From NCBI GenBank assembly GCA_951406725.2, contig OX597820.1, positions 114,824,001 to 114,888,000 on the forward strand: 64,000 bases of DNA. Reading direction: 5' to 3'. Below, one piece after another: positions 14,692 to 59,811 of this stretch. Both the position numbers and the translations under genes were made by a program. Below the pieces are notes generated by a model. That model worked only from the letters and a program-made list of their open reading frames with translations. It was not told the origin of the DNA and did no database searches. The stretch comes from Octopus vulgaris. Lineage: Eukaryota. Position 1 is the stretch's first letter, and each line of letters opens with the position of its first letter.

Positions 14692-16225
14692 CTATTAAAA
14701 AAAAAAACATACAAATTATAAACATTCTGTGGAAATTCTCAATAATTTTTTTAAACTCTGAAACTGAGTTCAAAAACTTTATGTAAAGCAAGGCTTCATT
14801 CCATAAACCATTCTAGAGTTAAAAGCATGGTAGTAAAATTAGATATGGATCCTGCACAAAGTAATTCCATATGTGGATGAAGATACCAAACAGATCTTTG
14901 TGCATCATCATCATCATCATCATCATCGTTTAACGTCCGCTTTCCATGCTAGCATGGGTTTGGACGTATGACAGAGGGCTGACAAACCAGATGGCTGCAC
15001 CAGGCTTCAATCTTGATCTGGCAAAGTTCCCTACAGCTGGATGCCCTAGAAACTCTGCCAGATCAAGATTGAAGCCTGGTGCAGCCATCTGGTTTGCCAG
15101 CCTTCAGTCATACGTCCAACCCAGTTCTAAATCAAGCCATGCAGTTCCAGGTCCTTAATCTTAACTGTTACATATGACAGTAAAGGTTTAGGGTACTTGC
15201 TGGAGGTTCATCCATTCATCTGATCAACCTAATAAAGGCAAGTAGAGTTAAGTAACTTACATAAGGTCACGATGCAATGTCTATTCTTAGAAGCATTAAT
15301 CAAGAGACAGGTGCCGCAATTAGTTAAGGGAAGCAAATATCAGAATTTAACATTTTTTCCCTTTGTTTCAGTCATCAGACTGCAGCCATGCTGGAGCACT
15401 CCCTTGAAGAACTTTAGGTTGAATGAATTGACTCCAGTACTTATTGTTTTTTAAAGCTTAGTGGGACTCTTTTTGGCAAACTGCTAAGTTACAGGGAAAT
15501 AAACAAACCAACACTGGTTGTCGAGAGGTGGTGGGGGACAAACATACGCATATATATGCATGATGGGCTTCTTTCAGTTTTCATCTACTAAATCCACACT
15601 CAAGGCTTTGGCTATAGTAGAAGACACTTGCCCAAGGTGCCACACAGTGGGATTGAACCAGGAACTATGTGATTGGGAAGCAAGCTTCTTATCACTGTCA
15701 TGTCTGTGCTTATTTAAGGAATAAACTGGAGAGAATTAATTAGAACCAAATTTGAAGGTGGTGAGCTTGCAGAATCAGTAGCACATTGAACAAAATGCTT
15801 GGTGATATTTCTTTTGGCTCTTTATATTCTAAGGTCAAAATTTTGCCATTCATACTTTCAAGGTCAATAAAAATAAAGTATCGGTCAAGTACTGGGGTCA
15901 ATGTGATTAACAAAACATCCTCTTGCCAAAATACTGATCATGTTCCTAAATCATTAATTATTACTTGCCAAGGTCAACTTTGCTTTCATCCTTTCAGATT
16001 CAAAAAATAAAGTAAAAGCTCAATTCTGGAGTTGATGTAATTGACTGACCCCTTCTAAAAATGCTGGTCATGGAGCAAAATTCGAAACAATTAATTAGAG
16101 CTAAATTACATTATTGGTAATTTTTTTTCTAGAATTCAAGGAAGATTTATTCACACTCTGCTAAGTGTTGTTATTTATTCAGAATAAGAGAACAATGGAG
16201 GATTTTAAAAAAAAAATTTTGTATA

Positions 16226-17708: not shown

Positions 17709-19645
17709 TCTATAATATAAAACCTGTTCTCTGTGTGTGTGTGTGTAAAAGATTATAACGGCCATATTTTTCAACTGATATTCTCCAAACTGGGAACATA
17801 CATTACTCATGTTCCAGGGATGGTTTTAGAATCTTCAAATTTTTTACATAATGAGTAACAGGCCCCTTCGGGGCAGAAAACACCCGGTCCTGGGTTATGT
17901 AGAGAAGGGAGGTAACTCTTTGCAAAGTAACTTTCAGAAATTACATCTATTGGTCACTAAAAAAAAATATTGCTTTTATATTAGATTCAGGTCTTGGAAA
18001 TTCTTTTTAAATATTTACTTCCACTTTTCTAGCTTCAGTGACGTCTATATCTCTTTATCCATCTCTCTCTCTCTATCTCTATATCTATCTGTCTATGTCT
18101 GTCTATATCTTATCTAACTGTATCTTATTTGTATAACTAGCTAGCTCTCTCTCTCTCTCTCCATATTTCACTCACTCTCTATTGTTTCCACTTTTATTTT
18201 TCAGATGCTATTGTTTTCTCTTTAAGTTCAATCACTATTATTTTCATTGTAAGTTTTCAATTGCTATTTACAAACAACAATGACAGAAAGAAGTTTACAA
18301 TTACTGATGAAAGTAATTTCATACATAACTTACTGACAGAAGTAACTTCATAACTTTCACTTGAATCCGTACACTTAGTTAAATTTGCCTACAAATTTCT
18401 TATTTACTTTTTGCACCATATTGCTTCTTTTTTTTTTTTGTTAACAGAATTACTGATAAAACTAAGTTCATAATTTAATGACAGAAGTAACTTCAAAAAT
18501 TTCACTTAAATCCATACATTTAGTTAATTTCCTTAAAATTTTTTATTTACATTAATGGCTTTTTCTTGTTCCTTCAATACTGGCTCTTTGGTTCACTGAT
18601 AGATTTCACTTCAACCCATACAATTCTTTATTTTCCATGGAAATTTCTTACTTTTTGCCCATCGTATTACAAAATATATTTCTGTTACCCAGTTATTTTC
18701 ATTGTTTAGTATCTTCTGCACCCGTGTATTTCTGTATACATATATAACCATGCTTAGAAAGAAAGTGTTAAATTTGTCTACAATAATCAAGGTCAGCCAA
18801 AAGAATGTCTGTGTCCAAGGAAAGAGAGACAGCTGCCGAAAGGAAAGCATGCCAAGAAAAGAACATACAGCACTACAATAGCCAGAGCATCTCAAAGTGA
18901 TGAACAGAGGTATGCACGGCTGATAAAGAATAGGATCTCCACTGCAGAATGAAGAGCAGTTGCAATGGCTCAGAGAAACAACTTCTATGAAGTAGCTTTC
19001 AATTATGATCCAGCAGTTCATTATGCAGATGACACTAGGGTTTCCATTGGTGCAATAACAACTGAGTGCATATATTGTAAAGCAAGGAAGTGGCCTGGAG
19101 AGACACCTGCACTGTGCTGCAGTGGTGGAAAGGTTAAACTCCCTGCAATCACCCAACCTCCAGAGCCATTGAAGAAACTGTTGTCATCAACTGACCAAGA
19201 TTCCAAGCACTTCCAAAACAAAATTAGACAATACAACGCTGCACTACAGATGACATCATTTGGAGCCACAAGAGATTTAACTGAACCAGGATTCAGGCAA
19301 ACTTTCAAGATCCAAGGTCAGATTTATCATCGGATTGGTTCTCTACTACCTCAGTCAAATCGGCCTTTCATTGTTTATAATCTGTACCAGTTTTTTAGTT
19401 ACAAAATAACCTACCCAAAATGTGTTTTTGAATTACATGTATTTAGTTTCTATACATAGATGGGTTGAAAACTTTCTTTTAACATTTCACTTAACGTCTA
19501 TGTTCCATGCTGGCATGGCTTGGAGAGTTATTAATGTAGAAAGTTGGTATCTCAGCTACTAGCAGTTGAGACCTGCGTAATCTAGACAGCGTTTTTAAAT
19601 TTCATTATTCTCTTTAACCTGGGCAACGCCAGGTATTTCTGCTAG
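17709..19645 (+). mobile_element. Helitron, internally deleted, with RepHel N-terminal fragment
   Basis: A|TC 5' end (tctataatataaaa); 3' hairpin cctgggcaacgccagg then CTAG|T; ORF 18965-19459 has CxxCxA..CC.GGKV and YNAALQMTSFG..FKIQGQIYHRIGSLLP motifs typical of Helitron RepHel. Confidence 0.88.
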
Positions 19646-20099: not shown

Positions 20100-21192
20100 C
20101 TAAAAGCAAACAGCCAAAGGAAGTAACCAAACTTCCTCGTCATTTTTACGCTACAATAATAAAACAAATTTTTTTAGTAATAATTCTTGCCATGCGTCAA
20201 GTACCCTTAATAAAAATATTTGGTTCATTATTCCATACGGTAAACAAGTAAAAAGTAACCTTCTATTATTTCACCAAGCAACAGAAAGGAACTTCCCTAT
20301 TAATTCTAGATATCACTCAATTTTTAACACACTGCATTAGAGTAGGTTTTTCCAATACCAGTAACATCTCACAAATTATAGCTTCATATAATAACCATGT
20401 TCTAAGAGGTTTTAATCTTTCTTCAAATAATACTAGTAACCTTATTAACACTAACAATAACAGTAATCTCTCCATAAATGGTAACAACAATACAACCAGC
20501 ATTTGCAATAGTGGCCCTGGTAAAATCTGTGTCCTAAATGGAAACTGCAGAATTAAAAATGCTGTTTACCAATGCAAGGTTACTACTGGTAACAAAGAAT
20601 ATTTTTATATTGGATAATCCTCAGCATTTTTGTAATGCTGTTTGACCAACCACTTCTGTAACTTTAAATACAATTGTAAGCGGAACTCTACGGGACTCAG
20701 TAAACTAATCTGGACCTCAAGAACTCTCACAAATCTTTTTCTTTGGAATGGAAAATTCTTTCTAGATCTTTTCCTTATGATAAAGGGAAGTCTTTCTGTC
20801 CTTTATGCATGGAAGAGCAGTATTTTATTTTCTTCTCTTCTCTAAATATAAATTGGAAAACAAATTTATAAAGAGAGTTTACAAATGTATACAGCAGGAA
20901 AAACACTCTTTTAGTTCTTTCAAACAATATCCACCCGTAACCTAATAATATTTCTAGATATAATATTCATGTGTGAATACATATTAGATTGTAGAGTCTG
21001 GAAGAATGGGTAGAATGAATAAAATAGCTTGTTATTTGGTTGCATTCCTTGACCTCATCCAGATCAACTGACTTTCATCTTCCCTAAGCTGGTATCCAGC
21101 TTGGTCACAGTTCATTGACAAACTAATAAAGAATACAACCATTATAAAGATTATAAAAGTCAAATGATTTGTAAGATAATATTGGAAAGACA
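20100..21192 (+). mobile_element. Penelope-like element remnant (GIY-YIG region plus 3' noncoding part)
   Basis: Near 20525 reads CVLNGNCRIKNAVYQCKVTTGNKEYFYIG; the 3' 245 bp are also present at 5081-5325. Confidence 0.65.
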
Positions 21193-23600: not shown

Positions 23601-23718
23601 CTTAAAGATAAAAGAAGAAAAATACCCTTCTTAATATACAATCAACTATGTGTGTGTGTGTGTGTGTATATATATGATTACACATTTGTCTATGTGTGCA
23701 TAGGCACCTACATATATA

Positions 23719-24992
23719 TCAGGTTGAGTAAAAAGTAAGCAATGTTTTGAACCATGAAGAATTTGTACCAGATATTTGCAGTTCTGAATTTTTTAAAGCA
23801 TTATTTTGCAATTATCTGATAATACAAACATAGACTTGTCCAAATGCATCAATAAATTAACATTGATATTTTTTTCACCATTGCTACAATCACCTGAAAT
23901 GGAACTGTCCAAGCCCGATGTTCAAGTAATTTTGCTATTCAACTTCAAAAAAGATGCAAAGCAGCAGAATCTGTTCACGATATCAACAAAATGTTTGATG
24001 AGGAAATGACCAGTGAGTGGTCAGCTCAAAAATGGTTTAAACAATTTCACATTGGAGTCCTGAGCCTTGAAGATCATAAGCATAGTGGATGTCCATCTTT
24101 CATTGATGACAGTCAATTGAAGACCATCATTCAGAAAGATCTATATAAAACCACACGAGAACTGACAAAAGAACCTCAAGTTGGTCAGAAAAGTGCCATC
24201 AACCATTTGCATGCAATTGGAAAATCAAAAAAGCTCGACAAATGGGTACCACACGATTTGAATGAAAATCAGAAAATGTGCAGATATGAAATTTGCTCAT
24301 CACTGCTTTTCCATAACCAGACCGATCCATTTCTTGACCGTATTGTAACTTGTGATGAAAAGTAGATTCTGTACAATAAATGTTCTTCGCAGTGGTTGGA
24401 CCAAAATGAAGCACCGAAAACCTTCCCTAAACCCGAGCTCTTCAAAAAGAAGGTTATGGTGACTGTTTGGTGGTGTACTGCTGGACTAATCAACTATAAC
24501 TTCTTAAAACCCGGAAAAACCATTACTGCAGAAACATATTGCCATGAAGTTGCAAAAATGAACAAAAAACTGCTACTCTTCCGTCCCAGACTGGTCAACA
24601 GAAGAGGGCCAATCATTCTTCATGGCAATGCTCGACCACACGTTTCACTAATGATGTTCCAGAAGTTGAGAAAACATGGCTACGATGTTCTTCCCCATCC
24701 AGCTTATTTCCCAGACCTTTCTCCTACTGACTACCACTTTTTCAAGCACCTTCTTGTTTTCCAGCAAGAGAAGGAGTTCTGAAATCAACCAATGCTGAAA
24801 GTACATTAAAGAGTTCATCAACTCCAGAACTCCAGATTTTTACGTTACTGGAATAAACAAACTTGTAACTCATTGGCAAAAATGTGCTGATTGTAATAGT
24901 ACTTACTTTGATGAATAAAATTTCTACATTGTTGAAATATATTGTGATGAATTACATGTCTCAAAATGTTGCTTACTTTTTACTCAGCATGA
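23719..24992 (+). mobile_element. Full-length degenerate mariner transposon
   Basis: 32 bp TIRs (tcaggttgagtaaaaagtaagcaatgttttga and reverse complement) flanked by TA; WVPHDL, IVTCDEK, HGNARPH and YFPDLSPTDYHFF motifs interrupted by stops and frameshifts. Confidence 0.93.
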
Positions 24993-25699
24993 TATATATA
25001 TATATATTGGAGCAAATATGAAAATCACATATGGTTTTGCATCCATGAAGCACTTAGCTTTATAGATGAATCGTCAAACCACAATGGCTGCAGGCATATA
25101 GCCTCTTCAAACTGGAGGTAGAAAACCATCATGGTCAGTTAATTTGTAAACAAAAGAATATTCTGTATTGTCTGAGCCTTAACAGGACCCTTAGCCTTAA
25201 ACAGGGTGGATTATCGCCCTAGGATCCTTAAAAACTTGCTTGACCAGGGGATGCTCTTAAACTCCAGAGATGAGATCTATAGTCCCTGATCACATTTTAG
25301 ACACTACCTGCTGCATGAGTGGGATTGCCTGTTCATCAAATATTTGCAGACCAGAACCAGTCTAAGGGCAGAGATTCCCCATACAACAATTAGGACCATA
25401 AGATTTTACTGACCAGACTAATCTGAGGGCGATCATCCATTCTATTTAAGGTTCAGACAGCATGGAATATTCTTTTGTTCACAAACAATTACTGACCAAG
25501 ACAGTTTCCTACCACCAGTTTGGAGAGAGGCTGTATGCTCGCAACCATTCAAGTCTGATGAGTCCCCTATAAAGCTAAACACTTTATGGATACAAAACCA
25601 TTATTCACTCTATGACCAACATATATTTAGCTTCATGTAAATACATTACTGCTCTAACTTTTAGAGTGTGCTTCTTTTTCAGATATATGATCCACTGAC

Positions 25700-26332
25700 T
25701 ATCTTCCAGCGAATGTTAAACGTCGTAAACAGTGGCTTGGAAAAATGAGAAAAGCTCAACCACAACCAAGCAGGGAACTTCATGGGAAAAAGGTTTTTCT
25801 CTCTATCTGGTGGGAATGCAAAGGCGTAATTCACTTTGAATTGTTACCACCTAATGCAACAATCAATGCTCAAGTCTACTGTCAGCAATTAGAGTGTTTG
25901 AACCAAGCTTTGAAGAAAAAGGACCCGCTTTAGTGAATCAAAAAGGAGTGATGTTTCATCAGGACAATGTATGACCCCACACTGCAGATATCACATCACA
26001 GAAGATCGAAGAGCTTGGTTGGGAAAAAGTTCCTCATCCACCTTATTCTCCCAACCTTGCTCCTTCAGACTACCAAATGGTAGTTTGCAGAATCATTTGG
26101 GGGGGTATAACTTTCGCAAGCCAGGAGGAGGTCAAAACTGACATTTCAGAGTTCTTCGCTTTGAAACCAAAAGAGTTTTACATTGATGGGATTAAAAAGC
26201 TTGTAAATAGATGGAAGGAAGTCACAGATAATCAAGGAAAGTGCATTGATGATTAAATTTCAATTAAATAGAACATTTGATCACTTGTTTTCTTTATTCA
26301 AAATTCGGACAGAACTTATGGGGTGACCTGAT
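25700..26332 (+). mobile_element. mariner 3' half
   Basis: KKVFLSIWWECKGVIHFELL..HQDN..HPPYSPNLAPSDY; ends in a TIR-like gaacttatggggtgacctga. Confidence 0.85.
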
Positions 26333-26343
26333 GTGTACATGTG

Positions 26344-26437
<94 letters not shown>

Positions 26438-26440
<3 letters not shown>

Positions 26441-26859
26441 TTTGTCCTACGAAGAATGGCTGAGGACGCTCGACCTTTGTTCTCTTGAAAAACGCCGCCG
26501 CCGTGGTGATCTCATTCTCGCCCACAACATCATAAGCGGGAAGTGTAACCTCTCGAAACAGCTGTTCTTCACTCCTGCTCCGGAGCGTCGGCTGCGGGGT
26601 CATTCCGAAAAGCTCTACCTGCGACGATTTCATCTCAATTGAAGGAGAGGAGCTTTCTCCGTCCGGGTTGCGGATCCGTGGAACAAGCTGCCAGACGAGA
26701 TGGTGAAGATGCCGACGACCGCTTTGTTCAAAGCCTCCCTGGACCTCAAGTGGCCTGAACTCTTTACATGAACACCACCCTGTACTTAACTCCATGTCCC
26801 CCTACATGGCCTTGCTATTTGCTTTTGAGCCAAATTAACTAACTAACTAACTAACTAAC
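26438..26859 (+). mobile_element. CR1/L2-type LINE 3' end
   Basis: LSYEEWLRTLDLCSLEKRRRRGDLI..LRGHSEKL..FSVRVADPWNKLP; (AACT)n tail; CpG-rich, so likely young. Confidence 0.85.
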
Positions 26860-27476
26860 ATATGATAAATGCGAAAACTAATTTCTGTGAGTCACACTTA
26901 GACCCCGCCTCTCTCACTATTCAATGACATTCCTACCGTTCCTCATGACGAGGATGATGAGGTGAGAGTAATAGTAGGCATAGAGATGGTGAGGGCACTG
27001 ACCAAGGCAGACAGAGAAAGAGTGGGTAGGTGAGAGAAAGTGGGAGATGATATACAACTTTGTTTAACCATGTCTCTTTGACAGAAATTCCTGTTGCCGA
27101 CACAGTAATTTTTGTTTTATTTTTTGCTTTCTTTAATACACACACATAAATAAAATACACTTTAATTGAAATAAAGTTTCCCCAAAATTAAACGTATCTA
27201 ATATAATAAATGTGAACGTCAGTGTGTCACACTTCTACAACTTGACTAAATCGTTTGAACTGGAAGCACAAGGCCTCAAATTTTGGGGGAAGAGATTAAG
27301 TCGATTACACCGACTCCAGTACATAACTGGTACTAATTTTATTGACCCTGAAAGGATGAAAGGCAAAGTCAACCTTGGCGGAATTTGAACTCAAAACCTA
27401 ATGGCAGATGAAACACCGCTAAGCATTTTGCCCAGCATGCTAACGATTCTGCCAGCTCGCCACCTTAATATAATAA

Positions 27477-27879
27477 TCTTTATATATAAAAGTGAGGTTG
27501 TGTGCTGTCTGTCTCCTACGATTTAGATTCCTAACTACTCCCACATTTTGCGGTGCAGTTTAACCAAAACCAGGTATCTTATAGTCGTGATTCATATCGA
27601 GCTCTTCTGGGTATTAGCGTGCGTCTATGATGAGTCTACGATTTAAAAAAAAAAATTACCATAATTTTTTTCCATTTTAATGCATTTTTTTCGCTATTAT
27701 ATAAGGGAAGTAACTCTCTAAAAATGTCTACGATGAGTCAACGATTTAAAAAAAAAATTACCATAATTTTTTTCCCATTTTTAATGCATTTTTTTGCTAC
27801 TTTTTGGCTATAACTCTCTAAAAATGCTTATATAGTTATTTCCCTTACAAACCCGAGCAACGCCGGGCGATACTGCTAG
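27477..27879 (+). mobile_element. Non-autonomous Helitron, about 400 bp
   Basis: A|TC start, cccgagcaacgccggg hairpin, CTAG|T end; near-identical copy at 48960-49353. Confidence 0.88.
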
Positions 27880-28261
27880 TATAATATAATATAATAAATG
27901 TGAATGTCAGTGGGTTATACTTTTTCAACTTTACTCCTAGAGGCTGTATCCCAACATTATACCATTTTGGAATCAGGCTTACTCTAAGAGCAAATTAAAA
28001 ACATTCTGGGCCATGGGCTGAAACCAGACCTGCAATCCTGAAATTTTGGATTCCTATGTTTTCATTACTGTGCTTGTTTCTGGCAATTTTTTTTTACGTG
28101 ATTTTTTGTGATGAATATGATTATCATTGGGATATGACTCTGGAGGAAGTAATTGCAACAAATACTCCAAAATAAGGCAGAGATCTGTTTGCAGATCTTC
28201 CTATTCAGGATCAGTTGCTTAAAAGCTAGTATACTAGCTTAAAAACCACCCTATCAGCTAG

Positions 28262-29036
<775 letters not shown>

Positions 29037-29248
29037 CGCCATGTTGATTATAGCTATACGCATATATTTTCTATCCTTCTTTCTGTATATATTTATCATC
29101 TCTATGTATCTTTCTGTATGAAGAGCGTAGGCTATATATACGTTATAATACTATGTTTTATTTATATTACATAGCGCCATACTAATACAATTGTTCGTTT
29201 GTTTTCCACCTGCCTTCGTCTTTTGTTTATTTTCATAAAGCTTCCCGT

Positions 29249-29781
<533 letters not shown>

Positions 29782-29880
29782 TAGTAGTAGTAATGGTAAG
29801 ACAACAAAAGAATGAATGAGACCTCGATATTACGTAAATAGAGGAATTTATCTGTAATATAATATGTGACAATTATTCGG

Positions 29881-29955
29881 TTGCCATAATAAGACTCTGA
29901 GATTCGGATGTTGAGGCAGAAACCTGCTCTAGCATCTCATCAGTTATCGAGGCAA
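29881..29955 (-). ncRNA. Type I hammerhead motif, mutated (left arm of palindrome)
   Basis: Reverse strand reads CTGATGA-GATG..CATCC-GAAT-CTCAGAG-TC; the GAAA core is changed to GAAT. Confidence 0.6.
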
Positions 29956-29990
29956 TCGAAAAATGCTATGAAAGTCATAGCATTTTTTGA

Positions 29991-30062
29991 TTGCCTCGAT
30001 AACTGACGAGATGCTAGAGCAGGTTTCTGCCTCAACATCTGAAACTCAGAGTCTTATGGCAA
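29991..30062 (+). ncRNA. Type I hammerhead ribozyme motif (right arm of palindrome)
   Basis: TTGCC-TCG-ATAA, then CTGACGA, helix II GATG..GCAG-GTTT-CTGC..CATC(T), GAAA, helix III CTC-A-GAG, TC (GUC triplet), TTAT-GGCAA closing helix I. Confidence 0.72.
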
Positions 30063-30387
30063 CCAAATAATTGTCACATATTATATTACAGCCGCTGTTT
30101 TTGTCCTGTTTTTACTATTATTGTTTTTTGTATTTTATATTCGTGTAACATCATCTGTTTTTCTGTCCCTGTTTTGTATATATTCGATCCTTTTTCCAAG
30201 AAATCTAATGCTCGTAGCTTAGTTTTTCCTTGGGGCTGGCCAGATTGGAGCAATCTCAAGATTAATCAGCCGAAATTGCTAGGATGATCCGGTTCTTGAC
30301 TGAAGATTGAAGGCTTCGAATGTTCCGTCCGTGTTTTTTGTATCGTCTTCTAAATGTTTTACGTTCTTGTCCCAGTTTGTATTTTTC

Positions 30388-30418
<31 letters not shown>

Positions 30419-30419
<1 letters not shown>

Positions 30420-32043
30420 CTTATTATAAAAGGCAGATTTTATCTGCCTCCCTTTGTCACTTATAGAAATCTACAATATAGGATTTCTTCAATTACAATT
30501 TACCTAGCATTTTTAAGAGTAGAATGCATCGGGTCATGCCAGGTCCAGTTTTTAAAATTTAAACTCCAATTAAGCAAAATTTACAGAAAACTCACATTCT
30601 GGTGTGTATGTCAAATGCTTTTCTTAGTCTGGTTTACAGCACACGCAAACTCACACTTGTCACTTATAGAAATCTACAATATAGGATTTCTTCAATTACA
30701 ATTTACCTAGCATTTTTAAGAGTAGAATGCATCGGGTCATGCCAGGTCCAGTTTTTAAAATTTAAACTCCAATTAAGCAAAATTTACAGAAAACTCACAT
30801 TCTGGTGTGTATGTCAAATGCTTTTCTTAGTCTGGTTTACAGCACACGCAAACGCACACTTGTCACTTATAGAAATCTACAATATAGGATTTCTTCAATT
30901 ACAATTTACCTAGCATTTTTAAGAGTAGAATGCATCGGGTCATGCCAGGTCCAGTTTTTAAAATTTAAACTCCAATTAAGCAAAATTTACAGAAAACTCA
31001 CATTCTGGTGTGTATGTCAAATGCTTTTCTTAGTCTGGTTTACAGCACACGCAAACGCACACACACAGTGTGCAACGAATAAAGTGAAACTAATTCACTG
31101 TGTGTGTGTTGACAGGTAGACAATAGAATGCGATGGCGATGTAATATTTGTTTCTGTCTATCACGCTGATAGATACATGAGTAAAATGTATGGCAAGCTA
31201 AGAGATAAGAGTGAGTGAAAATGTTCTTGGAAGAGAGTAAATAGCGACAGAGTGATTTGAGGAAGACTAAACTGAAAGTATGAAACAGTGTTTATGTATA
31301 AACAGACGACACTTATATATAGTTATGTATGCATCCGTTTAACCCTTTCGTTACCAAACCGCCCGAATTTACCTATTCATATTTAAATGAGGATATCAGA
31401 GTAAATCTCTTTACTACATTCGTGAAAACACGTATTATACTTCGTAAACACTTCAAATACAGTTTTGTACAAAAATCGAAGTGTAATTTTAATTCCGTGA
31501 ATTATGGGAGATTTTTTTCCAAAATTTGTTCCTATTGTGTTTTCAAAATTTGTAATTCTGACAAAAAATGGATACGAATTTCATTATATCAAGCAGCGAG
31601 TCAGAATTCGAAGGATTTTCTACTGAAGACCTTCATAAATCTAACTCTATGACTAAAAAAAAAAAGCATCGTTATATAAGAGTGAAGTTGTGTGTCTGTC
31701 TCCTACGATTTAGATTCGTAACTACTCCCACATTTTGCGGTGCAGTTTAACCAAAAGCGGGTATCTTATAGTCGTGATTCATATCGAGCCCTTCTGGGTA
31801 TTAGTGCGCGTCTACGATTTAAAAAAAATTTACCATCATATTTTTCCATTTTAATGCATTTTTTTTCGCTTTTATATAAGGGAAGTAACTCTCTAAAAAT
31901 ATCTACGATGTGTCAACGATTTAAAAAAAAAATTTACCTTAATTTTTTTTCAATTTTTAATGCATTTTTTGGCTATAACTCTCTAAAAATGCTTATATAG
32001 TTATTTCCCTTACAACCCAAGCAACGCCGGGCGATACTGCTAG
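30419..32043 (+). mobile_element. Composite Helitron with three 203-bp tandem repeats (30456-31062)
   Basis: TC start; repeat period measured at 30456/30659/30862; ends in the 400-bp module with hairpin and CTAG. Confidence 0.8.
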
Positions 32044-32494
32044 TCTTATTATAAAAGGCAGATTTTATCTGCCTCCCTTTGTCTCTTATAGAAATCTACA
32101 ATATAGGATTTCTTCAATTACAATTTACCTAGCATTTTTAAGAGTAGAATGCATCGGGTCATGCCAGGTCCAGTTTTTAAAATTTCAACCCCAATTAAGC
32201 AAAATTTAGAGAAAACTCACATTGTGGTGTCTAAGTCAAGTGCTTTTCTTAGTGTGGGCTAGAGCACACGCACACACACACACACACAAAAACGGAGCGA
32301 TCTGATTCACTCATGCTATCACTCTAATTTCTACGACTTTCTCTTTGCAAGTGTGCAACGATTAAAGTGAAAGTAATTCACTTTTTGTAGTGAGTGACTC
32401 TTTCACTCTGCATTCCCACTTCCTCTTTACACACATAGACACGCAAATATATAAATAAAATTGTAAGCTAATGTGTGTGTGTGTGTGTGCGTGT

Positions 32495-32531
<37 letters not shown>

Positions 32532-34107
32532 CGTGTGTGTGAGGGTGCGTGTGTGTGTGAGGGTGCGTGTGTGTGTGACAGGAAAGTTTTTTAGGACGAA
32601 TATAAGACCTAAAGTATATCCAAGTAGCAGAAAGATCGCCCAAAAGTGTATATAGATATTTAAATGTATTTATATATTCATCTATACACAGATGTATGTA
32701 TAATGTGTGTGTATATATTTCCATAGAGGTAACCTTTCACTCCATACAAAGTTTTTTAGGACGAATATAAGATCTAAAGTATATACAAGTAGCAGAAAGA
32801 TCGCCCAAAAGCGTATATAGATATTTAAATGTATTTATATATTCATCTATACACAGATGTATGTATAATGTGTGTGTATATATTTCCACAGAGGTAACCT
32901 TTCACTCCATACAAAGTTTTTTAGGACGAATATAATATCTAAAGTATATACAAGTAGCAGAAAGATCGCCCAAAAGTGTATATAGATATTTAAATGTATT
33001 TATATATTCATCTATACACAGATGTATGTATAATGTGTGTGTATATATTTCCATAGACGTAACCATTCACTCCGCACAAAGTTTTTTAGGACGAAAATAA
33101 GATCTAAAGTTATCTCTAAGTAGCACAAAGATCGCCCAAAAGTGTATATAGATATATAAATGTATTTATATATTGATCTATGCACACATGTATGTATAAT
33201 GTGTGTGTATATATTTCCATAGAGGTAACCATTCACTCCATACAAAGTTTTTTAGGACGAAAATATTTATATATAAAAGAAAGGTTGTGTGTCTGTCTAC
33301 TCCGATTTAGATTCGTAACTACTCCCACATTTTGCGATGCAGTTTAACCAAAACCGGGTATCTTATAGTCGTGATTCATATCGAGCCCTTCTGGGTATTA
33401 GCGCGCGTCTATGATGAGTGTACGATTTTACAAATAATTTACCATCATTTTTTTCCATTTTAATGCATATTTTTTTAAATAAAGGGAAGTAACTCTCAAA
33501 CTTCACACCAATATGCGTGCTCATATGCGACATAATATCACATCAGCAGCATTTCCTCACACCCTCCTTGCACTTGGCGAAGGCAAAATACCAGGGGATG
33601 AAAATGGTAATATTGCCATCGATTCCATTTGTACCATTGTTAAGACGCCTTCTGATCTCAGAGATGCAGTGTTCCCAGATCTACAAGCTAATTATCAGAA
33701 TATGGACTGGATTCGGCAAAAAGGCTATACTGGCCCCGAGGAATAAAACTGTTCACCATATTAATGATGAAATGCTAAAACTCATTCCTGGGGAAGTCTA
33801 TGTATATCAGTCTATCGATACAACTCCTGACCCACAGGACGTCATCAACTATCCAATAGAGGTACTCAATTCCTTTGAGCACCCCGGACTACCACCACAC
33901 TTTCTCAAACTTAAAGTTGGTGCCCCTATAATGCTCATCAGAAATTTGGTTCCCCCAAAACAATGCAATGGCACACGTTTGATCGTTAAGTCCTTATCTC
34001 CCACCGTAAGCTTATATCAATATTTGCCTGAATAATCATCATAATTCAGTGCAATTATTAACAGTACTTTCAAGCAATTCAGCCCCGAGCAACGCCGGGC
34101 AATTCTG

Positions 34108-34111
<4 letters not shown>
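32044..34111 (+). mobile_element. Second head-to-tail composite Helitron with about 4 x 165-bp repeats and a helicase fragment
   Basis: Starts immediately after CTAG with the same tcttattataaaaggcag end; 165-bp repeats at 32583-33262; 3' hairpin cccgagcaacgccggg. Confidence 0.8.
33513..34006 (+). pseudogene. Helitron PIF1-family helicase fragment (frameshifted)
   Basis: AILAPRN..IN, YPIEVLNS..GLPPH.LKLKVGAPIMLIRNL..CNGTRL motifs; frameshift near 33720. Confidence 0.88.
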
Positions 34112-34144
<33 letters not shown>

Positions 34145-34200
34145 AGTCAGTTGTTCATAAGTCTGAAAAAAAGCACGCACTAAAAACCTTTTGAGCAGTA

Positions 34201-34424
34201 GTATTTAATGTAGTTTTGGTTATGGCCACCTGTCTGCACTTAGCAAAATAGGTGACCCATCAAACCTGGCTGGAGGCACATAACCTCTCTACTACTGGAG
34301 ACAGGAATATCTCCTGCAGAAGAGAGGTTATGTATGTCTCTGGCCAGTAGGTCTGATAGGTCGCTGATTTTGCAAAATCAATGGTAACTCCCTGACTGGC
34401 CATAACCAACAACTACATTAAATA
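34201..34424. mobile_element. Foldback/MITE-like palindrome
   Basis: tttaatgtagtt..ggttatggcca pairs with tggccataacc..aactacattaaa; inner arms cataacctctct/agagaggttatg also pair. Confidence 0.7.
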
Positions 34425-35446
34425 TATGTGTGCGTGTGTGTCCCACCCACAAGTAACAACACATTTTTCACCCACCATACCCTAAGAAGCCGAAATACAT
34501 CTCTTTTAAACTGCATCTTTCTCTTCCTCACATTCCTATGATTGTTTTCCAATACCCTTTTTCTGCCCTCACTACTCTGCTCACTATATCACTGCTCCCC
34601 CACCCCCTATTTTACTACCCACGTTCTATGCTCAGATCCTTATTACTTGTGAGTACACACTAGCACTACACCATCTCTCTTCTACTCTCTCTTACACTTT
34701 TGCTGTTTCCTACTCTCCCCCTCTCTCTCTTTCTCTTTGGTCACTCTCTCCTCTTCTTTTTCTTCTGATTAGGTAACCAAGTATCTCCTTTACATTAGCA
34801 CAATTGTTTCTGGCCTCTTTCTTGTACCCCCTCTCTCTCTCTCTCACTCTCTCTCTCTTTCACTGGGTAACCATGTACCTCCTCTATAGCAGGACACCTA
34901 TTTCTGCCTCTCTATTTCTCTGTCACACTAACCTTATATCATTTGATATTGGTTCACCTCCTCTAATGAACCCCTCTGTTGTGGCAAGACACCTGCTTCC
35001 GTCTCTCTGTCATCTTCAAAACTTTCATCCTCTGACACAAGTTCTCCCTCCTCAAATGCTCCTGCCCCTCTCATAATTCCTTGTCTTGCAAGTTGCTTGG
35101 TTACCCCGCCCCTGCTGGTGTCACATTAAAAGCATCCAGTCCACACTGTAATGCGGTTCACCTTTGGAAGGGCATCCAACTGTAAAAATCACATCAAAAC
35201 TGCCAGTGTCATATAAAAAGCACCAAGTCTCCTCTGTGGAGTGGTTGGTGTTAAGAAGGGCATCCAGCCGTAAAATCCCTGCCAAAACAGACAGTAGCCT
35301 AGGGTAGTTTTTCTACCTGGCTGGCTCCTGTCAATCATCTTACCCATGTATGGAAGATGGACATTAAACGATGATGATGATATATTATTCACTTATATAT
35401 TGAAATATTATTTTACCAAACAAAATATATAAATTTTTATACTTAC

Positions 35447-47963: not shown

Positions 47964-48346
47964 ATCTATATATATAAAATTGAGGATATGTGTCTGTCTG
48001 TGTCTGTATGTGTGCATCACTAAAGCTCGAGAACTACAAAACCAATTTCATTCAAATTTTACCCATGCCTTACTTCGGAGCCAGGCAGAGTCAGGGGCCA
48101 AAAACATTTTCAACCTCTTGCCTAATGCAAGCCTAGAGCAATCCCTTATCTCTTAAACTATTTCAGCATTACATGTCAATAGCATCTCAATAACAAGTGA
48201 AACAATAGTATCTCTATGTGAGATAATACTTTCACTTTTCATAGTTTCACTATTAAGACTTTCACAGTGTATATGATAAATAAATAGTAAAACTATCAAT
48301 ACTGAAATTATTATCTCACATAAATACATACATGTACATCTATATG

Positions 48347-54420: not shown

Positions 54421-55799
54421 GGTAGTCCCCTCATGGACCCACTTCAGGGTCCCAAAACATGTATCCTTTGTACTTCCACCCTGCACCTCTCAGAACAAGT
54501 TGCAAGCTTATTGCTGGTTTTACTGGCATTGGGTGGAGACAGCATTATATTTTTCAAACAGACCCCTCGATCTAAGATTCCAACCTGCCTGAAACCGCCT
54601 CTTGTTTTCAAAAGTTCTGAATTATATCTTCCACCAAACCTTAGTCACAACTTATGTTCCTAACACTAGCTTAATGATAACTAAGTTATTTTACTAAATT
54701 CTTTGTTATATTTAAAATTAATTGAAAGAAACACAGAGCATCTCAACAGAAATATGGTAATGAAAGGGTTAATGTTCTTGGTATTTTTGCAATGTATATC
54801 ATTTCGAATATGTATTTCCAGGACAGATTCAAATCTGCAATGCAACCACATTGTGATTTAATATCTACATCATTACTACACTTTATCATATAAAGTTTGG
54901 TTGTCCAGTTGTTTTGTGCATCTGAATTTACAGCTTATATAATTTTTGTATGCCTAACAACTTTAAGCAGATGGGTTCAACAATTTGACTGAAGACTGGC
55001 GAACCAGATGGCCACACCAGACTCCAACCTTGATCTGGCTGAGTTTCTACAGCTGGATGCCCTTCCTAACTCTCGGAGTGGTTGGCATTAGGAAGGACAT
55101 CCGAATGCCAGATCAAGATTGGAGCTTGGTACAGCCATCTGGTTCACCAGTCCTCAATCAAATCGTCCAACCCATGCCAGCATGGAAAGTGGACGTTAAA
55201 CAATGATGATGATGATGACTGTTTAGTTTCTTTTATCATGAGTATAATTTTAGCCAATCAGAAAATAGTTGTCTGTTGCTCTATATTGTTCTTTTTTTTT
55301 TTATTGGCTAGTTAATCAACAGAATATACAATTGTCCCTTTTCTCCCTCTCACTCTGTCATTTAACCAATGATTAGGATTCTATCTGCTTCAACAGAATA
55401 TCTACCAGTTTAAAATCATTATCTACATCTATCTTTACTTGCTATCAGTTATCTACTCGTAAATATTTTGTACGTACATGCATTTTCCATAACACTTTCT
55501 GCAACACATTCTATTGGCCTCGTAAGACATGGAAATACACAGCTGCCGTCTGTTTCAGTCAGAGGACTGCAGACATGCTGAAGAACCACCTCGAATGGTT
55601 TTGTCAAACAAATCAACTCCGGTACTTTTATTTAAAGTGAGGTACTTGTTCTATCTGTCTCTTTTGCTGAACCATTAAGTTATGGGGGACATAAACAAAC
55701 TGACAGCAGTTATCAAGTGGTAGGGAGGACAAACACACACTTTATACATATGTATATATATATATATATATATATAAAGTAGCAGACAAACGAAAGAAG

Positions 55800-57430
55800 G
55801 GCACTCAACACATTTACTGAGAGTTACATGTGTGGATCAAGCAGTCTAATTCAAACTCCTTGGACAGGTTCAGGAAGGACTTGGTAAAAATATTCAAAGA
55901 ATTCAGCCTGTCCATAACAGTTACCACCAACCTGACTGCGGTTGATTTGTTGGACATAACTTTAGACCTGAACACAGGCAAGTACTACTCCTACAGGAAG
56001 CCTAATGATGAAATGGTATACATCCACAAGAGCTTACCCCCACCCCCATGGTTGAATTTAGAAACCTGGTTTCAGGCATTAGCAAACAGGTATCTAAACT
56101 CTCATCCACTGTTACAATGATGCTTTGGCTAAGAATGGATTTTCTGAGAAGCTTATATACGTGGACATTCCCCAAACCCCCTCTCCACACCTAGAATTGT
56201 CTACCAACATAGCCAGGCGCTTCCTGTCGTTAGATAAGAAACATTTCTCCAGAGACCATAAGTATTACAAACTCTTCAACCCCCATAATGTCAAGGTGAG
56301 CAATTCCTGCTTAGACAACATTGCATCTAACATCATATGCATCAGCAGATGTAAAAATGCACCCACACAAACCCCAACCTGTAACTTCTGAAACCCCATT
56401 ACCTGCCCTCTAGAAGGATCCTGTCTGTTAAGAGCTGTAGTATACAGAGCCACCCTTACACCATCTGATGACATCACTAGGCACCATACAGATATGACAA
56501 CCAATGACTTTAAAGGAAAGTACTCCCAGTACATGCACTCATTCATACCCAGGGATAGAGAGAACTCCACTTCCCTATTGTGCTTCCTCTGGAGACTCCA
56601 AGATATAAAACACCCAGCATCAAGTGGACTATTGTTCACAGAACACCATCGTATTCACCTGGTACCCCTAATTGCCAGCTCTGCCACCGAAAAACTGCAT
56701 ATCCTCTACCAACCCATCAACAAGAAATACAATCTATCCTATTGCTGTCACCAGAGGTGTGCCCTTGCGGTAAATTTCAAGCCATTGGCCAACAACCCAG
56801 ATATACCTCTTTAGTACCAGCTGCTCCCCTGCACAGCCTGCACCAAGGTCCTCATCACCAACTAACACCCATGAGCAGGACAGAAATCACCAACCTCCAA
56901 CACTTCTACCTGCATACTCTCACTCGTACATAACCACACGAGTTTATATATGTGCACACAAGTGTGCATTACCACACCATCTGCATACATGTTGATATAT
57001 ACACACTAGTGTGCATACACATGCACATGTGTTCATGCATGTACACACACACTTACGTATGCGCAAGTGTGTGCACAAGTGGATACATGCATGTGTTCAT
57101 GTATACGTGTATGTGCATACATGTACGTGTGTGTGGGTGTGAATGTACATCTACGCACACATACACATATATACTCGCATATCCACTGCCTCTTCCTACT
57201 TTCCCCACTAATCAGGCAACCAATTTCCTGTTTATCATGTGGTACTTTCCAAATAATTGTTGTCACTGAAATAACATCAAACTGTGACACTGCATGACCT
57301 TTCTCGACCAATCGCAAACTAACATCCAGTAATAAACATTGGCTTTCTCCTATCGACCTCTCATTCAAATTCCAATGGCTGAAGATTAGCATCAGGCTTG
57401 AAACTCAAAGTACCAAGGAATTTGAATCAA
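55800..57430 (+). mobile_element. Penelope-like element remnant (RT thumb, GIY-YIG, pLTR-like tail)
   Basis: KIFKEFSLSITVTTN..LDITLDLNTGKYYSYRKPND..YIH, HKYYKLFN..VKVS.SC and CPLEGSCL..VVYRA motifs; hammerhead downstream on the same strand. Confidence 0.8.
57363..57427 (+). ncRNA. Type I hammerhead ribozyme motif in Penelope tail
   Basis: ATTCAAATTCC-AA-TGG, then CTGAAGA, AGC-ATCAG-GCT, GAAA, CT-CAA-AG, TA (GUA triplet), CCA-A-GGAATTTGAAT; helix I has 3 plus 11 perfect bp. Confidence 0.75.
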
Positions 57431-59433: not shown

Positions 59434-59811
59434 AGTATATATATATATATATATATATATACGGTTATCAATTTGTGTTGCAAGATTCCTGATGTGAAAT
59501 TGTGTGTTGAAACCGATATTGTTGTATTTTGGGATGGTCATTCTTTTTTTTGCCAAATAAACACACGCACTATATATTTTTTTTAATTTGTTTATTACTG
59601 TTCTTATTTTATTATTGTAACTCATGTCCAATGTCCGGAAATCACAAGAACACACATGAAAACGAAAAGTGTCACTGAAGAGGTCATAGATGTGTGACAA
59701 AAGATTTCCAGACATTGGACAGGAGTTAACGTAATAAAATAAGAACAGGAATAAACGAATGAAGAAAAAATATATAGTGTGTGTTTTTATTTGAGGGGGG
59801 GGGGGATAACT

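Follow-up and report, generated by a model that had tools for sequence, protein, structure and literature searches.

An inverted repeat in an intron of NF-kB

The window, that is, the whole stretch of 64 kb analysed here, contains ten matches to NF-kB exons on the minus strand, running from 52524 down to 776, when searched by tblastn with the NF-kB proteins of Octopus sinensis and O. vulgaris. One exon peptide, 46 residues long, matches NF-kB p100/p105 of both species at 100% identity. The inverted repeat that concerns us lies between the exon matches at 35609-35421 and 23601-23497; it is therefore intronic, and its left arm is in the sense of the gene. The features around it are the following.

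23602-35420 (bounds approximate), minus strand: NF-kB (p100/p105-like) intron containing the insertion, delimited by the two tblastn exon matches
28262-29781, no strand: (TA)n tract, probable insertion target, ending 70 nt from the left arm
29790-29851, minus strand: one-sided extension of about 60 nt, beyond the left arm alone; family contigs have no continuation into the right flank
29852-29971 (120 nt), minus strand: left arm, truncated hammerhead-bearing end of a repeat family, sense to the NF-kB pre-mRNA
29877-29958, minus strand: left type I hammerhead motif, from the descriptor scan; no Rfam hammerhead match
29972-29974, no strand: AAG loop, the inversion junction, locus-specific as far as seen
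29975-30091 (117 nt), plus strand: right arm, the other truncated copy, in antisense to NF-kB, of a family that is multi-copy in four of four runs
29988-30066, plus strand: right type I hammerhead motif, from the descriptor scan and a sub-threshold Rfam match
30092-30390, plus strand: right flank, probably a piece of a different and far more abundant repeat, ending in (TA)n at 30391-30419

Two other features of the gene were recorded. The stretch 4257-4213 is a 15-codon NF-kB exon in O. sinensis isoform P0001, missing from P0002 and P0003, and is probably an alternative exon. The intron with the insertion also contains two tandem arrays, one of three 203-bp units (30454-31062, 99%) and one of four 165-bp units (32583-33265, 95%), both devoid of a hammerhead motif.

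A reading of this DNA made from its letters alone (hereafter, the sequence-only reading) had described a near-perfect inverted repeat beside a (TA)n tract, with arms of about 118 bp and an AAG loop. This description holds: in a blastn self-comparison the inverted repeat at 29852-30091 has 92.2% identity over 243 columns (E 1e-98). The arms are joined at their 5' ends, head to head, and in the family sequence the two ends of the palindrome correspond to one and the same base. They differ by five substitutions (right-arm positions 29988, 30007, 30040, 30044, and 30065) and by one 3-nt indel placed after the cleavage triplet, where the left arm has an extra TTA. Neither the repeat scan nor the self-comparison revealed a tandem copy of the arm at the locus.

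Because a near-perfect palindrome here adjoins a 1.5-kb (TA)n tract that is difficult to assemble, one could suspect a fold-back artefact of the assembly. We regard this as extremely improbable: the arms are not identical, two of their differences (the indel and T/C at 30040) recur as variants of the family, and run X1, possibly the sample of the assembly itself, covers the bin spanning the junction at a depth of 37.

Two outward-facing hammerhead motifs

We tested for the type I core C3 U4 G5 A6 N7 G8 A9, G12 A13 A14 A15.1, and U16.1 H17. The core consensus of hammerheads, and the cost of changes at 15.1/16.1, are treated in the available part of Perreault 2011 (PMC3088659). Over both strands of the window, the hammerhead descriptor returned just the two arm motifs, against 0.025 hits per window in 40 local Markov shuffles. 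A relaxed version allowing one core mismatch matched the right arm alone.

The right arm has all 11 fixed core bases, in CUGACGA (30003-30009) and GAAA (30041-30044), and an intact GUC triplet (30051-30053) that places C17 at 30053 and the putative cut after C30053. Its helix I consists of ATAA/TTAT and TTGCC/GGCAA. The foot of helix II pairs GATG (30010-30013) with CATC (30036-30039) and has an extra T at 30040; the whole helix follows a 13-position register (30010-30022 with 30027-30039), of which 10 positions are paired in this copy, and before G12 a pyrimidine (30039 or 30040) remains as an extra or bulged base. An alternative in which G30010 is an extra base between 9 and 10.1 was rejected because the subsequent pairs fail in that register. 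Helix III is the palindromic CTC-A-GAG (30045-30051). Helices I, II, and III can thus all be drawn on the core, provided that helix II accommodates the extra or bulged base at 30039/30040. Each motif that the sequence-only reading had listed, including the irregular foot of helix II, is found where it had been placed. The 1-nt loop that this reading gave to helix III does not stand, since such a loop cannot close: as a monomer, helix III has 2 bp and a 3-nt loop.

The left arm has CUGAUGA (29943-29937), the foot of helix II (29936-29933 with 29910-29907), a C at 29906, and a GUC ending at 29893, while its helix I has a two-sided internal loop. It departs from the type I core at A15.1, which is U (29902), making GAAU of GAAA; the remaining motif is present. 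Since the gene is on the minus strand, the arm with the broken core is indeed the one in NF-kB sense, as had been claimed.

A comparison with Rfam had been proposed along with these claims. Hammerhead_1 (RF00163) matches the isolated right arm with 24.3 bits (E 3e-4), below its gathering score of 34 bits. The alignment covers all 45 positions of the model with the core intact, and passes over helix II by way of a local end. The left arm has no match to this model up to E 10. At gathering level, Rfam has no match in the whole window, and there is no hammerhead among the 15 matches on the 609-nt region around the palindrome. These 15 are mostly miRNA models, which fit any long hairpin, and all are below their own cut-offs; a miRNA precursor was rejected on account of these scores, which are far under the cut-offs, and of the repeat origin of the hairpin. 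We also found no support for a coding role of the arm: its antisense frame of 45 codons gave no candidate, and its 51-codon sense frame gave no hits among 1.84 billion proteins. Pattern scans gave no matches in metagenome contigs, viral contigs, and prokaryote genomes.

The repeated unit is one arm with its upstream sequence

Parts of the stretch are present in 20 of the 24 public sequencing runs listed, none of these 20 being recorded as RNA. Contigs from four of them, representing three organism codes, were mapped to 29945-30392 with a required likeness of 80%, and the arm is a multi-copy family in all four. In X1 and X7 the summed contig depth, which is not a copy number, is 5-20 thousand at 29975-30049. 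It rises to 100-380 thousand at 30050-30094, where a distant sister group shares the 3' part; upstream, this group keeps CATC-C-GAAA-CTC-G-GAG-TT (a loose end of 47 contigs). The bin covering the junction (29960-29974) has depths of 37, 2, 0, and 0 in the four runs, and the value of 37 resembles that of long single contigs in X1. In the run guessed to be RNA the arm family is present and the junction bin is absent, which is uninformative on expression.

Among the 32 contig pieces listed, seven cover the arm, and all seven begin at 29975-29979 with 21-395 unmatched nt upstream. All four of the listed pieces that extend at least 7 nt past 30090/30091 stop matching there, off the right flank. Because the centre has single-copy depth and the family copies continue upstream, the unit of the family is one arm plus upstream sequence, and the palindrome is a local product, not the mobile unit. 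The proposal that the palindrome is itself a ribozyme-only element is not supported: its centre reaches depth 37 in a single run and 0-2 in the others, against thousands for the arm.

Under this proposal the palindrome would spread whole, as a fold-back or MITE-like non-coding unit carrying only ribozymes. It is compact (240 bp), without an ORF, and ends on both sides at the same family base, and one X8 contig that joins opposite strands at 29982/30054 shows that other inversions exist. Yet this contig has breakpoints other than those of our palindrome, the locus has no clear target-site duplication, the centre is at single-copy depth in one run of four and nearly absent in the other three, and the family pieces stop matching at the centre to continue with other sequence. 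This explanation is largely refuted, and we hold it to be highly improbable.

The variants of the family inform on the motif itself. The statements that follow concern the 40 of 74 variants that were listed; these are unphased, the other 34 may include changes in the core, and one further A>T variant has no position. Thirteen of those listed fall within 30003-30053, at 12 positions. Position N7 is A in 28-65% of depth, N17 is U in 67-94%, the centre of helix III is G in 7-36%, and 30040 is C in 25-49%; the others are in loop II (30023) and helix II (30015, 30016, 30018, 30028, 30029, 30032, and 30034). The variation of this multi-copy motif thus falls on tolerant sites: none of the 12 listed variable positions is among the 11 core bases, for 51 positions in total (P ~0.035), which is the excess conservation of the core that the sequence-only reading had called for. 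G12 has no listed variation, and its CpG partner 30040 is variable. With the majority letters, 30016-30033 and 30017-30032 become G-C pairs, and in three of the four runs 30015-30034 becomes C-G; these letters pair better in helix II than those of this copy, with the proviso that the variants are unphased and of CpG type. Taking the swap between U-A and C-G at 30015/30034 as proof of covariation was rejected, because CpG decay explains it. Overall, the listed variation is what one would expect if selection had preserved the motif during the spread of the family, with CpG decay explaining part of it.

The arms share T30015, A30016, T30032, and C30053, where 67-97% of the family depth has another letter in the four runs. 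Such shared minority letters imply that both arms come from one template, or that they were homogenised. The extra TTA of the left arm is found in 6-13% of depth and also in the sister group; the right arm is therefore not simply the intact one. Both arms, the right one included, have drifted since the insertion.

Probable origin as a truncated Penelope-type insertion

At this locus, (TA)n sequences at 28262-29781 and 30391-30419 bound a composite insert. The search for a target-site duplication found just (TA)n and one 7-nt match overlapping an arm end. The extension of about 60 nt beyond the left arm is probably a one-sided tail of Penelope type, by analogy with published insertions. The right flank is probably another repeat, judging from its summed contig depth, which reaches 3-5 million in two runs, and no listed piece bridges 30091/30092. 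Since the summed depth hardly changes across 30091 in X7 and X8, the flank could also be a sister subfamily of the same element. Separately, the larger (TA)n tract is interrupted at about 29037-29250 by a 215-bp insert, unrelated to the arms by blastn, in which TGAAGAGCGTAGGCT (29119-29133) looks like the decayed start of a hammerhead.

We think it most likely that the locus is ordinary Penelope-type debris, from a type of element that is already known. More precisely, one Penelope-like element (PLE), or else a non-autonomous derivative mobilised by a PLE enzyme, would have inserted here once and in 5'-truncated form, a reading to which we give a probability of about 0.8. Its head-to-head ends, presumed one-sided tail, (TA)n neighbour, and pair of hammerheads on opposite strands are all published features of PLE insertions. 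In the parts of these publications available to us, Craig 2021 (PMC8557442) describes an inverted 5'-truncated copy, a one-sided tail of 30-40 bp, and a bias for (TA)n; Arkhipova 2013 (PMC3846280) describes head-to-head inverted pLTRs with palindromic junctions, for which self-priming was proposed; and Frangieh 2024 (PMC11167929) describes the tail as the interval between two start sites of reverse transcription, and AT-rich targets. The locus resembles the insertions of endonuclease-bearing PLEs in its head-to-head inversion, palindromic junction, extension of one arm, (TA)n neighbour, and 5' truncation.

Following these papers, the PLE endonuclease would have cut in or beside the (TA)n tract, and reverse transcription would have begun just downstream of the pLTR hammerhead from two nearby start sites, leaving one arm with the tail of about 60 nt and the other without it. 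Reverse transcription would have halted after about 120 nt, and a fold-back or self-priming step would have produced the inverted second copy in the same event. The hammerheads would face outwards because each truncated copy retains its 3' end, the site of the motif. Both arms would have decayed after the insertion.

Some observations fit this scenario less well. The presumed tail exceeds the published 30-40 bp, and there is no clear target-site duplication; such duplications are often not discernible in microsatellites. Unlike the typical PLE insertion, this one has no ORF body left, and its right end abuts what is probably another repeat; no Pfam match to a reverse transcriptase or a GIY-YIG domain was found among eight ORF pieces of the window. 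The sequence-only reading had spoken of a non-coding, ribozyme-only Penelope derivative. The hammerhead of Penelope or retrozyme type, the palindromic helix III suited to dimers, and the origin from an inverted pLTR remain of this proposal; the palindrome as the element itself does not.

The closest published motifs are the hammerheads in pLTRs of metazoan PLEs (Cervera and De la Pena 2014, PMC4209133). The available part of this work reports dual minimal hammerheads, derived from truncated PLEs, that lie on opposite strands at distances of 100-700 bp. It also reports palindromic helices III, and ribozyme activity that is absent or low for monomers and low for dimers. The octopus motif is like them in its type I topology, long helix II, and short helix I, in its palindromic 15.2-16.2 and loop 3, and in the high number of heterogeneous copies with opposite-strand pairs about 100 bp apart. 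It differs from them in lacking an extra base between 9 and 10.1, in the extra or bulged pyrimidine of its helix II (3' side), and in its longer helix III (CUC-R-GAG). Within Fig. S3 of that work, one of 56 rows has a base before GAAA, and D. virilis has a bulge in helix II; neither that figure nor Table S1, as available to us, has an octopus entry. As in the anole PLE, there is an ATG at the start of helix II, but in octopus its frame stops after about 20 codons.

Alternatively, the arm could come from a tandem non-LTR retrozyme, with the inversion arising at or after insertion. These elements, according to the available part of Cervera and De la Pena 2020 (PMC7229834), have units of 150-450 bp, canonical type I hammerheads, and circular RNA intermediates, and like our arm they are non-coding and of low GC, with a weak helix III that may need dimers. 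The helix III of 2-3 bp and the two-part helix I of the arm resemble the canonical type I more than the minimal PLE motifs, and the sub-threshold match to Hammerhead_1 points the same way; moreover, the monomers of retrozymes occur dispersed, and PLE pLTRs may be their source (bioRxiv 10.64898/2026.07.22.740005, as available). Retrozymes nevertheless need tandem motifs on the same strand (PMC7229834; bioRxiv 10.64898/2026.07.22.740005; available parts), whereas here the motifs are on opposite strands and there are no head-to-tail units; this arrangement does not allow a unit-length RNA to be excised and made circular. Tandem copies are absent from the locus, none of the eight joints listed is of the 'goes back' kind at the arm, and a contig that extends 395 nt upstream has no further match among those listed. 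Head-to-head inversion with a one-sided extension has been described for PLEs. We therefore consider a retrozyme origin unlikely and retain the Penelope-type insertion.

A more speculative possibility, which we find doubtful, concerns the family as a whole. A non-autonomous PLE derivative would carry an undescribed cephalopod family of hammerheads whose architecture is a variant one: an extra or bulged pyrimidine would precede G12, helix II would have 13 positions, helix III would be a 7-nt palindrome, and the triplet would mostly be GUU. Such ribozymes would act as dimers or with the help of a protein. Through the fold-back stubs of this derivative, octopus introns would acquire long perfect hairpins, which would both silence the ribozyme and be open to A-to-I editing, here in the NF-kB pre-mRNA. 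Among the papers listed by our literature searches, none is on an octopus hammerhead family; the family may already be contained in Repbase, Dfam, or the 2026 O. vulgaris repeat library. The annotation of repeats in O. vulgaris published in 2026 (PMC13282606) reports abundant PLEs and 30 recently active Penelope families; the words 'hammerhead' and 'ribozyme' do not appear in the available portion of its main text. The locus adds octopus to the long list of animals with hammerhead motifs in Penelope-type repeats and is a tidy example of a fold-back insertion product. If the variant foot of helix II is active, the natural consensus of hammerheads would become modestly wider.

Predicted sequestration of the motifs and the proposed selection against cleavage

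We computed fold energies, which leave out tertiary contacts and Mg2+. For a single arm, the hammerhead fold is 11.9 kcal/mol (right) or 8.6 kcal/mol (left) above the free ensemble, and these gaps are compatible with activity because of the contributions left out. In the free fold, the CUGA of the core pairs with the UCAG of helix III. The claim that the right arm folds into a full hammerhead is thus sustained for the parts of the motif and not for its predicted fold. As a side observation, CUGA (30003-30006) can pair with UCRG (30046-30049) in both the A and the G variants of the family, an alternative inactive fold.

Inside the palindrome the gaps increase to 104.5 kcal/mol (right) and 101.0 kcal/mol (left), the hairpin having about -195 kcal/mol on either strand. 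By this model, a gap of 100 kcal does rule out hammerhead activity in read-through transcripts, where the hairpin sequesters the motifs. Since each motif is transcribed after its own complement, neither is likely to cut at this locus. For two copies of the same strand, the double-hammerhead dimer is 15.3 kcal/mol (right) or 8.4 kcal/mol (left) above the free cofold, and no such dimer can form in cis because the two motifs are on opposite strands.

These results bear on the suggestion of the sequence-only reading that the core of the gene-sense arm was broken by selection against cleavage of the host pre-mRNA. It is true that the sole core substitution (A15.1>U) is in that arm, that changes at 15.1/16.1 cut activity at least 10-fold (PMC3088659, as available), and that retrozymes are depleted from introns in Xenopus (bioRxiv 10.64898/2026.07.22.740005, as available). 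Against purifying selection, this is a single event, and five random substitutions would hit the core of the gene-sense arm with P ~0.21, and that of either arm with P ~0.39. In the pre-mRNA the hairpin is predicted to sequester the motif by about 100 kcal/mol, with an intact core as with a broken one, and even for arms outside the hairpin the free cofold is favoured over the dimer fold by 8-15 kcal/mol. Furthermore, PLE hammerheads have no or low activity as monomers (PMC4209133) or need the PLE protein, and the protein-assisted hammerhead is reported to be dispensable for insertion in vitro (PMC11167929; both as available). Since its complement is made first in the NF-kB pre-mRNA, the left motif would pair as it emerges. 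By these models an intact left core would have been silent too; the claim of selection is neither needed nor supported, and we judge such selection very unlikely. When a stub is joined head to head, transcription always reaches the complement of an outward-facing ribozyme before the ribozyme itself, and fold-back stubs should therefore escape selection against cleavage.

Other repeats in the window

Four further palindromes were searched for a hammerhead core, and none was found: those at 14957-15122 and 54971-55175 are inverted pieces of an abundant dispersed repeat, that at 34202-34424 has a MITE-like look, and the last is at 48215-48322. ORF fragments at 20252-20617 and 55821-56814, which have no Pfam match, resemble what we take to be remains of a Penelope-type endonuclease and reverse transcriptase, unlinked to the palindrome. 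The Pfam search on eight ORF pieces of the window gave one Pif1 helicase domain: of the fragments at 33493-34035 and 18953-19459, one has the Pif1 helicase 2B domain (E 3e-15) and the second is Helitron-like by eye.

Another palindrome of 240 bp, at 59554-59793, is older, with 78% identity between its arms. It has CTGAAGA at 59675, a 6-bp hairpin, and AAAA in the expected place of GAAA, and is probably, from its sequence, a decayed fold-back stub of another hammerhead-bearing family.
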